A model generated the notes under the pieces. The model saw only the letters and a list, made by a program, of their open reading frames with translations. It had not been told where the DNA came from and did not search any database. From a virus: 64,000 bases of DNA. Positions 29,332 to 43,654 of the stretch are shown here, in pieces. The translations under genes were made by a program, and so were the position numbers. The stretch's first letter is position 1; each line of letters begins with the position of its first letter. The stretch lies in IMG/VR virus record IMGVR_UViG_3300003323_001383; one strand, given 5' to 3'.

Positions 29332-29718
29332 CTACACCCGCCGGAGCCCCGGGTCAATCCCGGACGCGGTCGCGCACGCTATCCGGACGTCCGCGGCCCC
29401 GAACGGCTTCCTGAGGACCGGCGCGCCGGTGGACTGAAGGAAGGCGTCTATCCCCGGCATCATGGTCGCCCCGGTCAGGAACACTATCCGGTCCACGAGG
29501 TCCGGGCGGTCCCTCGTCAGGACTCGATGGACGTCCACGCCGGTGCAGTCTGGCATGAGGAGGTCGCACAGGACGACGTCGTAGTGCGGCCGCGGCTCGG
29601 ACACGAGGTGCGAGATGGCGGCGCAGGAGTCGCTATAGCACACTATCTCGTGCCCGCTCAGCGCCCTGGCAATACACCCGAGGATGAGGGTCTCGTCGTC
29701 TATACAGAGGATCCGCAC
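29332..29718 (-). CDS. response-regulator receiver (CheY-like) domain protein, stand-alone
   Basis: MRILCIDDE...DVVLCDLLMPDCTG...LTG...KPF matches the receiver fold motifs. Confidence 0.75.
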   Translation of the reverse strand: MRILCIDDETLILGCIARALSGHEIVCYSDSCAAISHLVSEPRPHYDVVLCDLLMPDCTGVDVHRVLTRDRPDLVDRIVFLTGATMMPGIDAFLQSTGAPVLRKPFGAADVRIACATASGIDPGLRRV

Positions 29719-29733
29719 GCCTAAGAGGCCCGA

Positions 29734-29946
29734 TTAGGTCTCCATCACCTCGACGATGACGTGCGCGTCGTCCCCGACCTCCTGACAGTGCCAGTCGAGC
29801 CTGCCGACGACGACCTTTCTGCAGAGGGCGCACCACCAGCGCTTCCGAAGAAGCTCCGTCATCGCCCGCGCCAGCTCCGCCTTCCCCTCCGGCGTGGAGA
29901 GGAACTCGGACAGCATGGACTCCCCGTGCGGGCGGTCTGCCGTCAT
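29734..29946 (-). CDS. small zinc-ribbon protein with VIVEVMET tail (VMES family)
   Basis: WCALCRK...WHCQE; ends DDAHVIVEVMET. Confidence 0.5.
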   Translation of the reverse strand: MTADRPHGESMLSEFLSTPEGKAELARAMTELLRKRWWCALCRKVVVGRLDWHCQEVGDDAHVIVEVMET

Positions 29947-30527
29947 CCGGGGCCGACGTCGCCCTTCTTCCTCGCCCCGCCCCTCTTGCTCTTGTAGAAG
30001 CGGTCGAGGCTCCCCTCGCGCCGGAGGACCTCGCCGAACTCCTTCGCCCTCTTTCGGTAGAGGTCGCGCGCGTCCTTTCGGACGTCGGCCGAGACCTGGA
30101 CGCCGTCGCTCCGGCGAAGGACCATCGGCCTGATGAGCTCGTCGACCTTCGCCAGGCGGCCCGTGACGCGGTCGCGGAACCCGGCGAAGGACGGGAGCCC
30201 GCACTCCTCCGTCAGCGCGACGACGGCGTCGAGGATCTCGGGGTGGATCCTGTCCACCTCGGCCCTCGACATGACGGCGTCGATGAGGGAGGCCTCCCCC
30301 TTCCGGACCATCTCGTCGATGGAGTCGATGACCGTGTCCACGGCCTCCTTCGTCTTGACGTGCCTCTCGCGCGGGGAGCCGTGGAGGATCGCCCGGGACG
30401 CAGCGTACATCCTCTGGAGGAGGACCTCGTCCCGTGGCGGGGAGGGCCTCTGCGCCGCCTCGTGCGGCCCGGGCGGCGTCGCGGCCGCGGGGGCCTTCTT
30501 CGGGCCCGTGAGCTTTGGGAGCGGCAT
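29943..30527 (-). CDS. hypothetical protein (194 aa)
   Basis: Start MPLPKL after the shadow N-terminus; ATGA overlap downstream. Confidence 0.45.
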   Translation of the reverse strand: MPLPKLTGPKKAPAAATPPGPHEAAQRPSPPRDEVLLQRMYAASRAILHGSPRERHVKTKEAVDTVIDSIDEMVRKGEASLIDAVMSRAEVDRIHPEILDAVVALTEECGLPSFAGFRDRVTGRLAKVDELIRPMVLRRSDGVQVSADVRKDARDLYRKRAKEFGEVLRREGSLDRFYKSKRGGARKKGDVGPG

Positions 30528-30730
30528 CAGCCCTCCTTCTTGGGGCGGAGGTCGTTCAGGCCGTCCCAGACCGTCTTTATCATCTTCCGCATCGTCCGCT
30601 CGGACTCCTCGAGGTCCTCGGAGAGCTCGGGGTCGAACCCCTTCGCCAGGTCGTAGTCGGCCTCGCCGAGGACGGCCATGACTATCTCCCGAAGCTTCGC
30701 CTCCTCCGCCGGGCTGGGCTTTTTCGCCAT
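30527..30730 (-). CDS. small acidic hypothetical protein (67 aa)
   Basis: MAKKPSPAEEAKLREIV...; overlaps the start of the next gene. Confidence 0.4.
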   Translation of the reverse strand: MAKKPSPAEEAKLREIVMAVLGEADYDLAKGFDPELSEDLEESERTMRKMIKTVWDGLNDLRPKKEG

Positions 30731-30766
30731 AGGACACCGTACGGTCGGGGAGTGAGGAGTCAGCAG

Positions 30767-31342
30767 GTGCCCCTGGCCGTCGTCCCGCATCGGAGGAGGG
30801 AGAGGCCTGCGCCGTCGGAGCCGCCGATCAGGAGGAAGAGCTCGGATCCCCCGGAGGGGGACGCATACTGGGACTGGCGGCCCGCCCCGCTGCGCTGGAA
30901 GGACCATGAGTTCGAGTGGAGGCCCCGCGCCATGTTCTCCATGGAGGAGTATCAGTACCTCATCTTCAACCCGTTCCCGGACAGGTTCCGGGTGTCTGGT
31001 ATCGGCAGCGGCGCCGTCGGCCCTCTCGGGCTGGGGATCTCGGACCTCATGGACGGGGACTACTTCCCGCCCCCGAGAAGGTCCTGGATCTGCCACGGCG
31101 AGTGCGGGTGCCCGAGGGCGAGCCTGCGGGGCGTCAGGGCGACGAGGGTCGTCCCCAGCTACGCTCCGAACTATCTTGAGATCCGCTGCAGGAAGTGCCT
31201 GGTCGGCTCCTACGCGAACTGCAGGATGCCGATAAAGGACGGCCTCGAAGAGGCGCTCAAGCCGCTCCGAGGCCGTTGGGTCGGGATGGGGTGCGAAGAG
31301 GTAGGGGACTACCTCGTCGTCCACCACGTCATGGAGAGCTGA
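30767..31342 (+). CDS. Cys-rich protein with VVHHVMES tail (VMES family)
   Basis: GAGGAG SD before GTG 30767; CHGECGC...CRKC...C; stop abuts the stop of the MVP gene. Confidence 0.5.
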   Translation: MPLAVVPHRRRERPAPSEPPIRRKSSDPPEGDAYWDWRPAPLRWKDHEFEWRPRAMFSMEEYQYLIFNPFPDRFRVSGIGSGAVGPLGLGISDLMDGDYFPPPRRSWICHGECGCPRASLRGVRATRVVPSYAPNYLEIRCRKCLVGSYANCRMPIKDGLEEALKPLRGRWVGMGCEEVGDYLVVHHVMES

Positions 31343-41898: not shown

Positions 41899-41910
41899 TA
41901 CATCGTAGCC

Positions 41911-42333
41911 TCAGCTCACGGCGTACTTGGCGTCGTCCGTCCCCATCACGGTCTTCTCGAAGGTGATGCGGGCGAGGGCCGGGAGGTCCCTGTACTCGAG
42001 GGAGCGGGGAGGGACGTCCATCGACTTGTAGGTGGCGTCCACCAGGTCGGTGAAGTCGGCCAGCCACTCGTCGTTCTCCCTCCTGCACCCGGCGCACACG
42101 GTCGCCCTCGGGTGGTCCCCGCACTTCGCCCGGAACAGCATGGAGAACTCTTCCTGTAGGGACCTGTAGGCCTCCATGGAGGAGACCTCGAGGGCCACGG
42201 CGACCTCGTCCTCCTCGCCGTCCACGTCGAAGATGTGGAGGACCCACACCCTCCCCTCGTGCTCGGCGACGTAGGCGTGGCAGCGCATCGTGAAGGGCTC
42301 GCAGCTGTGCGGCATATGCCCTTCACGGTACAT
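41911..42333 (-). CDS. hypothetical protein (140 aa)
   Basis: Balanced composition with scattered Cys/His. Confidence 0.5.
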   Translation of the reverse strand: MYREGHMPHSCEPFTMRCHAYVAEHEGRVWVLHIFDVDGEEDEVAVALEVSSMEAYRSLQEEFSMLFRAKCGDHPRATVCAGCRRENDEWLADFTDLVDATYKSMDVPPRSLEYRDLPALARITFEKTVMGTDDAKYAVS

Positions 42334-42377
42334 CAGAAGCTTTATCGGACCGCATACGTAGGACTACGGGCCGGACC

Positions 42378-42761
42378 ATGGCAGACCAGGAAGACGACGA
42401 GCCCCTCTTCGGGCCCGAGACCCCGAGGACCTGCGCCGCCTGCGGCGGAAGAAGCTGCAAGTGGTGCTCGCGCGGGTACCAGGACTCGGCACAGCAGAAG
42501 TCCTGGGCGGAGTTCCGGGCCAGGATGAGGAAGATATCCTCGACCTACTCTCTCCTCGAGAAGGTCGTCGGGGAGCTCATATCCGGCCTCGAGCTCATCG
42601 GGGAGACGGAGCTGGCCGGCCAGGGCCGGGACTGCCTCCGGGCGTGGTCCGACGCGGCCCCGGACTCCCAGGAGCGCCGGGACGCCAGCATGCGGATGAG
42701 CCTCTTCCAGAGCCGGGCGGTCATCGCCATCATGAAGGGCCGCCCCTCTCCCCCGGGGTAG
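42378..42761 (+). CDS. hypothetical protein with N-terminal CxxC...CxxC
   Basis: CAACGGRSCKWC. Confidence 0.5.
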   Translation: MADQEDDEPLFGPETPRTCAACGGRSCKWCSRGYQDSAQQKSWAEFRARMRKISSTYSLLEKVVGELISGLELIGETELAGQGRDCLRAWSDAAPDSQERRDASMRMSLFQSRAVIAIMKGRPSPPG

Positions 42762-42769
42762 CGTTCCCC

Positions 42770-43024
42770 GTGCCGAAGGAACCCAAGGGCTGCGAGTACT
42801 GCGGAAGGCCGGGAAGGAAGCGGATAGGGCCGGAGGACGGCGCCCCGGAGGACGTCCACGCGTGCGACCACTGCTGGAAGCTCCTTCAGGACCCCGTGAC
42901 CGCGGTCCCGCTGCTCCGCGGGCACCTGTCGCTCGAGATGCGGGGGGAGCCGGACGCCGCCAAGGTCGTGGGGGCGTTCATCGACGAGGTCGCCGGATGG
43001 CGGCCCCGCCCCCGGAGCTCATAG
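42770..43024 (+). CDS. small zinc-ribbon protein (GTG start)
   Basis: CEYCG...CDHCW. Confidence 0.35.
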   Translation: MPKEPKGCEYCGRPGRKRIGPEDGAPEDVHACDHCWKLLQDPVTAVPLLRGHLSLEMRGEPDAAKVVGAFIDEVAGWRPRPRSS

Positions 43025-43654
43025 GCTGTCGGAAAGGAAGTTCTTTACCTGGGACCGCCAGTCCCGGACGAGCTTCGTCGTGATCTTGCGTCCGCCGAAG
43101 GCCAGCGCCTCGCGGACGATCTCGGGGCTCGCCCCGGACCGGACGGCGCAGACGTAGCGTGCCTCGTCCCACATGCCGAGCCTCCGCATCTCCTGCTCGG
43201 CCTCCTCCATGAGGTCGGCGGCATGGTCCTCGGCCGGGGGAGGGGCCTCCGTGGCCTCGAGGAGCGTCCGGGAGTCCCCGGGCGAGGCGGGGGCGTCGAG
43301 CGACTCCTTCTCGTTCTCGAAGCGCCGGCGCCGGTGCACCAGGTTGATGCACACGTTGTTGGCGATCATGTAGACGTAGTGGCCGAACGAGGACTTGCGC
43401 GGGTCGTGCGCGCTCTGGCCGTGGTTCTTGTGGAGGATGGCGAGGTACACCTCCTGGAGGAGCTCCTCCATCGGGACCTCCGCCACCTTGAAGAACTTGT
43501 GGACGATCTTGATGATGTCCTGGCGCTTGGCGATGACGTCCACGCCGAGGTGCGTCACGCCGTCGTCTGCCTTCCTCGGCCACGGGAGCCTCCCCGTCTC
43601 CTTCCCTACCGGACTAGCCTCGACTACGACGGACCGGACCCTCGGCGACGACAT
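43019..43654 (-). CDS. ECF-type sigma-70 family sigma factor (211 aa)
   Basis: Region 2 LLQEVYLAILHKNHGQSAHDPRKSSFGHYVYMIANNVCINLVHRRRR; start MSSPRV chosen, with an AT-rich region upstream. Confidence 0.7.
   Translation of the reverse strand: MSSPRVRSVVVEASPVGKETGRLPWPRKADDGVTHLGVDVIAKRQDIIKIVHKFFKVAEVPMEELLQEVYLAILHKNHGQSAHDPRKSSFGHYVYMIANNVCINLVHRRRRFENEKESLDAPASPGDSRTLLEATEAPPPAEDHAADLMEEAEQEMRRLGMWDEARYVCAVRSGASPEIVREALAFGGRKITTKLVRDWRSQVKNFLSDSL

Follow-up and report, generated by a model that had tools for sequence, protein, structure and literature searches.

Regulatory genes in the window

The DNA analysed here is a 64,000-nucleotide stretch of a virus (IMG/VR record IMGVR_UViG_3300003323_001383; hereafter the window), in which four genes located between positions 29,332 and 43,654 encode two stand-alone CheY-like receivers (Rec1 and Rec2) and two sigma-70-family factors (Sig1 and Sig2, Table 1). 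In the original prediction these genes were regarded as one regulatory module, lacking both a kinase and an anti-sigma factor, that would plug into the two-component and extracytoplasmic function (ECF) sigma signalling of its host. The idea of a single module had to be given up: the genes lie in separate, independently conserved units. Rec2 goes with a Dam methylase gene and Sig2 with a replication block; Sig1 is an optional gene and Rec1 a recent arrival.

A codon-bias gene call yielded 71 genes, and Pfam was run on these and on 8 further open reading frames (ORFs) from uncalled gaps. Related or comparison loci that were read alongside the window carry L-numbers (L001, L008 and so on). Neither HisKA, HATPase_c nor Hpt was found by Pfam in the 71 predicted genes and 8 further ORFs, and phmmer searches with two Myxococcales hybrid-kinase cores against six-frame ORFs of at least 60 amino acids (aa) gave no hit in the window or in 17 loci of its clade. 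As a positive control, the same search detected kinases in 9 unrelated contigs (19 other viral loci were searched). The proposed absence of a histidine kinase from the 64-kb window is thus borne out. PADLOC assigned none of the four regulatory genes to a defence system, and a defence-system explanation was therefore rejected.

Table 1. Positions of the regulatory genes and of features next to them in the window (aa, amino acids; nt, nucleotides)
Feature	Position	Strand	Evidence or remark
Phage transfer-messenger RNA (tmRNA), tag ANDNSIAAAA	28971..29318	-	ARAGORN; Rfam RF00023, 85.1 bits; 13 nt downstream of Rec1
Rec1, stand-alone CheY-like receiver, 128 aa	29332..29718	-	Pfam Response_reg (PF00072), 44.7 bits, E 1.7e-11
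NinI/ApaH-like metallophosphatase	34383-35189	-	Pfam Metallophos; NCBIfam ApaH and PP-phosphatase, partial; PHROG NinI-like phosphatase
110-aa protein ending ...REVMDS	35138-35470	-	Sig1 operon
PTH2 peptidyl-tRNA hydrolase	35480-35803	-	Pfam PTH2; gene after Sig1
Sig1, canonical ECF (group 4) sigma factor, 158 aa	35800..36276	-	Pfam Sigma70_r2, 50.7 bits, and Sigma70_r4_2, 46.5 bits
X, conserved all-helical protein, 120 aa	36273..36635	-	First gene of X-Sig1-PTH2 operon, translationally coupled to Sig1
Conserved ~105-nt 5' leader of X	36636..36741	-	Alignment of four orthologues; between promoter and X
Predicted sigma-70-type promoter of X-Sig1-PTH2 operon, TTGACA-17 nt-TAATAT	36748..36776	-	Promoter scan; inside last Rec2 codons
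Rec2, stand-alone CheY-like receiver, 128 aa	36738..37124	-	Pfam Response_reg, 52.6 bits, E 6e-14
Dam-type (D12 class) orphan N6-adenine methyltransferase	37164..38018	-	Pfam MethyltransfD12, 161.6 bits; PADLOC orphan/type II methyltransferase
Sig2, divergent two-domain sigma-70-family factor, 211 aa	43019..43654	-	Pfam Sigma70_r2, 26.1 bits (cut-off 24, marginal)
Predicted Sig2 promoter, TTGTTT-17 nt (ending TGg)-TAAGTT, extended -10	43662..43690	-	7 nt before ATG at 43654

Two receivers with intact phosphorylation pockets

The Response_reg profile (111 positions, cut-off 30.2 bits) spans nearly all of both receivers, with residues 3-112 of Rec1 aligned to profile positions 1-107 and residues 4-112 of Rec2 to positions 1-110. 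Both domains fill their 128-aa proteins and leave no space for an output domain, as had been predicted. The aspartate pocket, on which the receiver assignment had been made to depend, is complete in both proteins by alignment to the profile and to CheY. It consists of the acidic pair D7/D8, the phospho-acceptor D51, T81 and K103 in Rec1 and of the acidic residues D8-D10, the phospho-acceptor D51, S81 and K101 in Rec2. The corresponding CheY positions (D12, D13, D57, T/S87 and K109) are kept in Rec1, Rec2 and every aligned orthologue. Across the orthologues from nine other loci, in which identity falls to 25%, these residues are invariant or conservatively kept; for Rec2, no change at all is seen at D12, D13, D57 and K109, and T/S87 is retained, even at 25-28% identity in phages of 301-436 kb. 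Judging from these alignments, the phosphorylation pockets of the receivers are under purifying selection down to that level of identity.

Rec2 starts 39 nt after the Dam methyltransferase gene, lies directly downstream of it in all eight loci where both genes were seen (L008, L009, L016/17, L019, L021, L079, L095) and is probably co-transcribed with its neighbours; an overlap of the two genes is seen in L016 and L021. IMG/VR phages of 301, 393 and 436 kb likewise encode receivers of the Rec2 type that stand alone and have an invariant pocket, with only 25-28% identity to Rec2. This distribution argues that Rec2 is ancestral to a clade of 130-436 kb phages and that its phosphorylation site is under selection.

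No match was obtained by tblastn of Rec1 and Rec2 against 50,697 GenBank phage records, nor by single-protein scans of IMG/VR with Rec1, Rec2 and Sig1; a profile built from Rec2 orthologues found 24 loci. NCBIfam revealed weak similarity of the receivers to CpdR and the DVU0259/DivK family, far below the equivalog cut-offs (CpdR, 41 vs. 180). Among the PHROGs, which contain receiver families lacking annotation, both receivers match phrog_5982 (profile of 1030 aa) and phrog_20458 (829 aa), i.e., long phage proteins with C-terminal receivers.

Rec1 has a different history, its orthologue being found only in the closest relative, L008. It is separated by 15 nt from the preceding gene and by 13 nt from the tmRNA, and is probably co-transcribed with its neighbours. 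Its top NCBIfam matches are the receiver parts of the Myxococcus hybrid kinases EspA and EspC (69.7 and 62.5 bits, compared to 44.7 for the Pfam profile), and in genome and metagenome scans its nearest relatives come from metagenome-assembled genomes (MAGs) of Myxococcales. In two of these loci (L054 and L055) the C-terminal receivers of PAS-HisKA-HATPase_c-REC proteins are 42% identical to Rec1 over 105 aa, and the motif CDL(L/M)MPDCTGVDVH is common to Rec1 and the Myxococcales kinase receivers. At least 135 residues precede the receiver in 20 of the 26 nearest relatives examined. Since these nearest relatives are C-terminal receivers of Myxococcales hybrid kinases, Rec1 looks like a liberated hybrid-kinase receiver domain that was recently acquired. 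Such an origin from a host-type kinase receiver would fit a role as decoy or phospho-sink.

Sig1, an ECF sigma factor without a recognisable anti-sigma in the window

Sig1 consists of sigma2 and sigma4 domains only, both above curated thresholds, and scores 75.6 bits with the NCBIfam model TIGR02937 ("sigma70-ECF," cut-off 42.9). Its best solved relative is the RpoE of Bartonella quintana from the complex with NepR (PDB 5uxx, 82.6 bits), and it also matches Pfam PhyR_sigma2. The closest named cellular homologues, however, are ECF sigma factors of Bradyrhizobium, Afipia and Pseudolabrys (~45% identical), and in the two that were read the sigma gene is followed by a gene for a 257-264-aa protein with an N-terminal anti-sigma domain and a transmembrane segment. 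Because the cellular homologues pair with such a membrane protein, we rejected an assignment of Sig1 to the EcfG type of the general stress response. No gene of the window matched the NepR or PhyR family by Pfam and both receivers are single-domain proteins, so that a PhyR-NepR-EcfG system is not seen here.

A cognate anti-sigma factor co-transcribed with the sigma gene is typical of ECF sigma factors, but not universal. No homologue of the cellular membrane anti-sigma was found in any frame of the window, and no anti-sigma Pfam family matched its predicted genes and further ORFs. The genes beside Sig1 encode PTH2 and X, the latter lacking an anti-sigma profile or fold; the claim that no anti-sigma gene adjoins Sig1 is therefore upheld.

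The GTG start codon of Sig1 overlaps the stop codon of X by 4 bp and its stop codon overlaps the start of PTH2 by another 4 bp. This translationally coupled X-Sig1-PTH2 arrangement with 4-bp overlaps is found in the window, L008, L009 and L019, and over the rest of the operon (34383..35803) gene order is the same in L001, L008, L009 and L019. Variant orders are X-Sig1 followed by the metallophosphatase in L079 and X-Sig1-NUDIX in L016. The phage orthologues of Sig1 number about ten, with 46-77% identity to each other, and the gene is present in L008, L009, L016, L019 and L079. It is missing from its slot in L018, L020 and L095, where the orders are X-197-198-PTH2, X-84 aa-PTH2 and X-PTH2, respectively. 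Since X adjoins PTH2 or other genes without a sigma factor in these three loci, gene order and similarity indicate that Sig1 is an optional, host-derived insertion between X and PTH2 that has lost the membrane anti-sigma of its cellular cousins.

Protein X itself has no match in Pfam, NCBIfam, PHROG or PADLOC. Its AlphaFold2 model (predicted local distance difference test score, pLDDT, 88) has five helices and no meaningful fold match in the PDB; no anti-sigma, NepR or AsiA was among the matches listed. The X family comprises 751 cluster representatives of a helical type of 110-190 aa with the conserved C-terminal ending ...(E/V)AA(Q/E). Two alanines terminate 66 of 156 sequences and are found within the last three residues in 91 of them (58%), compared to 1-2 of 120 for either sigma family. 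By analogy, this tail resembles an ssrA-type ClpXP degron. We considered X as a dedicated anti-sigma of Sig1 and rejected it because X is kept where Sig1 is absent (L018, L020, L095), has 751 representatives as opposed to about ten phage Sig1 orthologues, and shows no anti-sigma match in sequence or fold.

Sig2, a divergent sigma factor of the phage clade

From N- to C-terminus, Sig2 comprises the motif LPWPR, a core resembling region 2 and a four-helix helix-turn-helix (HTH) domain. Motifs resembling regions 2.1-2.4 (EELLQEV...FGHYVYM.ANNVCINLVHR) are conserved across 35 homologues, in which the C-terminal segment shows the HTH pattern of sigma4. The AlphaFold2 model (pLDDT 83.9) has two helical domains, with the C-terminal four-helix domain at H144-210. 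Its best Foldseek matches in the PDB are mostly sigma factors, the full-length ones being to the ECF factor SigH, sigma-28 and RpoE, and they are weak (best E 0.013). Both sigma factors had been predicted to be of the ECF type. For Sig1 this is confirmed by both domains and by TIGR02937; for Sig2, region 2 is recovered marginally and a region-4-like domain is suggested by the predicted structure, not by profile, so that its "ECF" label is a provisional one drawn from architecture and structure prediction, below curated thresholds.

The 289 homologues of Sig2 come only from metagenomic contigs of up to 436 kb, several of them listed as viral. Five IMG/VR contigs of 139-427 kb show synteny of Sig2 with DnaB, PolA and dCTP deaminase, and in all relatives examined the gene is found at the margin of the replication block. 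Given the 289-member family, the conserved synteny and an identity of 55-61% retained in relatives whose guanine-plus-cytosine (G+C) content is 37-56%, Sig2 is a core gene that is ancestral to the clade.

Promoters and leader sequences

An alignment of four diverged phages shows invariant or conserved TTGAC and TAA..T elements in the predicted X-Sig1-PTH2 promoter, and TTGACA-N17-TAACAT also precedes X in L020. The leader between this promoter and X contains the conserved or invariant alignment blocks TTCGCCTAAG and GGTCCTCC. Its CCTCC (36692-36696) pairs with the Shine-Dalgarno (SD) sequence GGAG (36644-36647), and the SD is sequestered in the predicted minimum-free-energy folds of all four orthologues, the four being the whole sample. 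No Rfam family matched the leader.

L008 and L009 retain TG.TA...T upstream of Sig2, and the lower-G+C relatives L005, L006 and L007 have TGGTAnnnT there; with the promoter this close to the start codon, the Sig2 mRNA is probably leaderless. Since conserved promoters of the host sigma-70 type precede both sigma genes, these are probably early genes read by the host sigma-70 holoenzyme.

The original prediction had proposed a search for ECF-type promoter motifs upstream of late and structural genes. No such motif was enriched: GGAAC-N15-18-CGT was observed 0 times in 75 upstream regions (0.68 expected), and GGAAC/GAAC...CGT(T) variants were also not enriched upstream of genes. In k-mer enrichment, applied to 30 and then to 75 upstream regions, only TACGGT/ACCGTA was enriched. 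TACGGT lies 5 nt before the start codons of PolA (49733-49738, minus strand) and of the first gene of the Rec1 operon (30736-30741, minus strand). At the PolA position of lower-G+C relatives (L003, L004) we find TAAAGT or TAAAAT a few nt before the ATG. From these AT-richer relatives we interpret TACGGT as a GC-adapted TAnnnT -10 element of leaderless host-type promoters and rejected it as a motif of a phage sigma factor. PolA, the Rec1 operon and Sig2 each have a TAnnnT hexamer 3-7 nt ahead of the start codon, a placement that implies leaderless mRNAs for all three; no consistent -35 element accompanies the TACGGT/TAnnnT hexamers.

Genomic context and host

The window has a G+C content of 64-72% along its entire 64 kb and its genes are mostly ORFans. 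Recognised replication and helicase genes are a family A DNA polymerase (PolA), DnaB helicase, an SNF2 helicase and a primase zinc ribbon, and a tail protein was matched in PHROG. Further Pfam identities include dCTP deaminase, the Dam methylase, an HNH and a GIY-YIG endonuclease, an RRM protein, two PTH2 hydrolases and two DnaJ proteins; ARAGORN and Rfam found 11 tRNAs and one tmRNA. Pfam and PHROG scans of the predicted genes recognised no capsid, portal or terminase. Near-identity DNA searches of the 29-44 kb region against GenBank phages gave no match. Genes for proteins identical to Rec1 and Rec2 over all 128 aa were likewise predicted on public root-metagenome contigs, and a 95.6-kb contig carries Sig2 and X in identical form.

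The relatives of the window are IMG/VR viral contigs of 134-436 kb. The sole GenBank phage relative is an uncultured phage of 485 kb, whose Sig2 match has 34% identity over 41% of the length. Because the relatives of Sig2 on viral contigs share the block DnaB-PolA-dCTP deaminase-Sig2 and the GenBank relative is a 485-kb phage, the window is a fragment of a huge soil or root phage, probably of the ~0.4-Mb class. tmRNAs have also been documented from huge phages (PMC7162821). The clade (L003-L007, L018, L081, L083 and L095 compared to the window) spans from ~37% to ~68% G+C and has in common Sig2 at 55-61% identity and the gene order AAA-Dam-Rec ... X-PTH2, which implies that closely syntenic huge phages of this clade have very different hosts. 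For the window itself, a host from the Myxococcota is probable; the named relatives of Sig1, on the other hand, are alphaproteobacterial.

Interpretation and alternative explanations

We interpret Rec1, Rec2, Sig1 and Sig2 as four separately organised regulatory genes of a huge phage, the sigma factors redirecting RNA polymerase (RNAP) and the receivers using phosphate of external origin, and we hold this explanation as a whole to be somewhat likelier right than wrong. Sig2, the clade's own sigma factor, would be transcribed early by the host sigma-70 holoenzyme from its conserved extended -10 promoter, and would then bind the host core RNAP and direct it to phage promoters. Sig1 would be an accessory ECF factor, captured from a bacterium without the membrane anti-sigma and expressed through a leader in which the X ribosome-binding site can be occluded; an ECF-type regulon of either the phage or the host would be activated by Sig1. 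Given the lack of an anti-sigma and the conserved promoter and leader, the activity of Sig1 would be set by its expression. The phosphate on Rec1 and Rec2 would most likely be donated by host kinases or phosphorelays or by acetyl phosphate, and once phosphorylated the receivers might act as decoys or phosphate sinks, or as phosphorylation-dependent protein-binding switches that report the state of the host. The phospho-sink and RNAP-redirection roles put forward in the original prediction are plausible inferences, and so are the identity of the phosphodonor, the binding of the sigma factors to RNAP and a switch role of the receivers.

It is tempting to speculate further that Rec1 is a decoy which mimics the receiver of an EspA/EspC-like kinase and drains or intercepts its flux of phosphoryl groups, so that host development, sporulation or stress responses are blocked or mistimed during infection, that Rec2, kept next to Dam throughout the clade, is a phosphorylation-dependent sensor of host state and that Sig1 is gated only by the SD-masking leader and a short-lived AA-tailed X; this detailed scenario we regard as unlikely. 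If the decoy and sensor roles were true, the phage would carry a viral signalling layer made of host parts and devoid of both kinase and anti-sigma.

Several observations weigh against the explanation favoured here. Region 4 of Sig2 matches no Pfam profile, its score of 25.7 bits with TIGR02937 is below the cut-off of 42.9, and its Foldseek E-values are weak. The searches of upstream regions yielded no promoter motif that could be assigned to Sig1 or Sig2. The position of the uncharacterised X is precisely that expected of a Sig1 regulator. Elsewhere in the genome the phage could also encode a kinase, Hpt or anti-sigma, given that 64 kb were seen whereas relatives reach 360-436 kb, and with clade hosts that differ widely in G+C, no one conserved host kinase suggests itself as partner of Rec2.

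The main rival explanation is that a cognate kinase, and perhaps an anti-sigma, is encoded in the ~300 kb of the ~0.4-Mb genome not covered by the window and forms with the receivers a phage-internal two-component circuit that times the infection. Besides the size of the relatives and the identical proteins on the 95.6-kb contig, the long PHROG proteins with C-terminal receivers speak for it, and the retention of Rec2 across widely differing G+C would be easier to explain by a partner that travels with it. However, no kinase core was detected in ~300 kb of clade sequence (the window and the 17 loci) by a search that does find kinases in other viral contigs. Moreover, two-component genes are usually adjacent, but the conserved neighbour of Rec2 is Dam, and the nearest relatives of Rec1 are cellular Myxococcales hybrid kinases rather than phage proteins. 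We therefore consider such a circuit rather unlikely. A self-contained partner-switching or proteolytic switch, similar to PhyR-NepR-EcfG or CpdR/RssB-ClpXP, has also to be considered, in which X would act as a labile anti-sigma of Sig1 whose release or degradation would depend on the phosphorylation of Rec2. The order Rec2-X-Sig1 with the 4-bp overlap of X and Sig1 is indeed conserved in L008, L009, L019 and L079. Sig1 resembles the EcfG-type RpoE of the NepR complex and PhyR_sigma2, and the degron-like AA tail of 58% of the X family would suit a labile protein. In addition, a small helical gene precedes the sigma gene, just as nepR precedes ecfG at the general stress response locus. On the other hand, X persists without Sig1 and belongs to a far larger family, Rec2 stays with Dam at a distance of 2.7 kb of other genes from X in L016 and L021, X lacks a NepR or anti-sigma match in profile and fold, and the cellular homologues of Sig1 use a membrane protein with an anti-sigma domain. 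Since the three genes are separable in evolution, we judge this switch to be improbable.

Another view would be that the receivers work without phosphorylation or are neutral host-derived cargo and that Sig1 is a passenger without regulatory consequence. The patchy distribution of Sig1 and Rec1, the lack of receiver matches in the GenBank phage records and the failure to find target promoters would agree with this. Yet all five pocket residues are kept in every orthologue at identities down to 25-30%, which is not expected of pseudo-receivers or decaying cargo, and Sig1 remains 46-77% identical among its phage orthologues, with promoter, leader and translational coupling conserved. Again, we attach little probability to it. 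Finally, the region might be part of a bacterial chromosome or of a plasmid-like element and the regulators ordinary cellular orphans, since capsid, portal and terminase were not recognised and large plasmids with comparable sets of translation-related genes have been noted (PMC7162821). But the relatives of the window are viral contigs in IMG/VR, and the only GenBank relative is the uncultured 485-kb phage. The tail PHROG, the phage-type PolA/DnaB/primase block, homing endonucleases, the tRNA array, the tmRNA and the ORFan majority likewise render a cellular origin very improbable.

If the receivers of the huge phage indeed accept phosphate from host kinases, they would represent a viral means to read or short-circuit bacterial two-component signalling, and would also hint at the identity of the host and at a host pathway relevant to infection, possibly myxobacterial development. 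In the literature we came across no account of phage receivers that consist of a single domain, lack a kinase and are conserved throughout a clade. The sigma factors are of a common kind; modest novelty lies with the conserved orphan receivers, one of which derives from the receiver of a hybrid kinase. The Sig2 family may serve as a marker of this uncultivated phage clade and is its probable master regulator.

Other features of the window

A theme of ribosome rescue and proteostasis is apparent near the regulators, with the tmRNA, the two PTH2 genes (25455-25844 and 35480-35803) and the two DnaJ proteins. At least nine otherwise dissimilar small proteins end in a tail of the form h-V-x-x-V-M-E/D-S/T* (e.g., ...VVEVMES, ...VHEVMES, ...VREVMDS). 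The respective ORFs end at 16363, 28638, 29734, 35138, 38015 and 59098 on the minus strand and at 31342, 62198 and 63844 on the plus strand, and genes of this kind adjoin three of the four regulators (Rec1, Rec2-Dam and the Sig1 operon). In several, pairs of cysteines are found just before the V-M-E/D-S/T tail, which could represent a shared degron, a targeting tag or a paralogous family of zinc ribbons.

Two tandem suppressor tRNAs with the anticodon UUA, reading UAA (34225-34299 and 34303-34376, both minus strand; Rfam 62.1 and 59 bits), sit between a gene for a protein resembling major vault protein (MVP) and the metallophosphatase. TAA is the stop codon of 7 of the 71 predicted genes, including PTH2 after Sig1 and the gene before Rec1, and programmed UAA read-through or partial recoding is a possibility. 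The MVP-like protein (877 aa; 31343-33976, minus strand; MVP_shoulder 70.1 bits, Vault_3 35.7 bits) is conserved in L008 and L019 and is unusual for a phage. A tRNA array at 60675-61604 (plus strand) comprises Tyr, two Lys, Gln, Asp, Asn and Met, with separate Trp and second Met genes at 62197-62267 and 63318-63391 (plus strand); these tRNAs are mostly for amino acids with AT-rich codons, in a genome of 68% GC.

Two exact copies of TTTAGnCCCGTCTGC (4011-4025, plus strand; 63398-63412, minus strand) are each located upstream of a large gene of structural type. Within a hairpin GCrGACGG ... CCGTCTGC, each copy of TTTAGnCCCGTCTGC supplies the loop and the 3' arm; allowing for mismatches did not reveal any enrichment of the pattern. 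For the two copies, a role as late promoter, operator or small-RNA element is conceivable.

Comparison with known systems

Phage sigma factors that redirect the host core RNAP are well known from T4 (gp55) and SPO1 (gp28 and gp33-34). Like these, Sig1 and Sig2 are small proteins of the sigma-70 family, apparently with host-type promoters, and no phage RNAP is encoded in the window; here, however, two sigma factors of different origin coexist, and Sig2 constitutes a family of its own with an N-terminal LPWPR extension. Sigma factors have also been described from group 2 jumbo phages (PMC7824862), and sigma-70 genes from huge phages (PMC7162821).

Compared to cellular ECF systems, Sig1 shares the full sigma2 and sigma4 architecture of the 162-163-aa sigma factors in the ECF/anti-sigma pairs of Bradyrhizobium, Afipia and Pseudolabrys, and finds its best PDB match in the EcfG-type RpoE of Bartonella quintana (5uxx). 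It differs from them in that anti-sigma, NepR and PhyR are lacking, X precedes and PTH2 follows it, and it is driven by a promoter of the sigma-70 type rather than by an autoregulated ECF-type promoter.

Single-domain response regulators such as CheY, DivK, CpdR and Spo0F serve as phosphate sinks or protein-binding switches. Rec1 and Rec2 are likewise receiver-only proteins with an intact pocket and no output domain, but they are phage-encoded, and no kinase, Hpt, ClpX or flagellar partner is identifiable. A parallel is offered by the CtrA homologues in phages of Alphaproteobacteria (PMC9437464), which are also phage-borne parts of two-component systems without a kinase that presumably read host signalling; unlike Rec1 and Rec2, however, the CtrA homologues possess an output domain, which binds DNA. 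The "cREC" proteins of jumbo phages are divergent receivers never found in kinase systems and are linked to genes processing NAD+/ADPr (PMC7824862). We rejected this assignment for Rec1 and Rec2, given their full-length match to the classical receiver profile and the location of the nearest relatives of Rec1 inside histidine kinases. Neither Macro nor NADAR domains were found in any predicted gene of the window, the neighbours of the receivers being Dam, X, the tmRNA and small ORFans. The closest counterparts of Rec1 are instead the receivers of hybrid kinases of the EspA/EspC type of Myxococcus xanthus and of Myxococcales MAGs, with which it shares 40-42% identity and the same catalytic residues; unlike these, it is a free-standing, phage-encoded protein of 128 aa without a transmitter domain.

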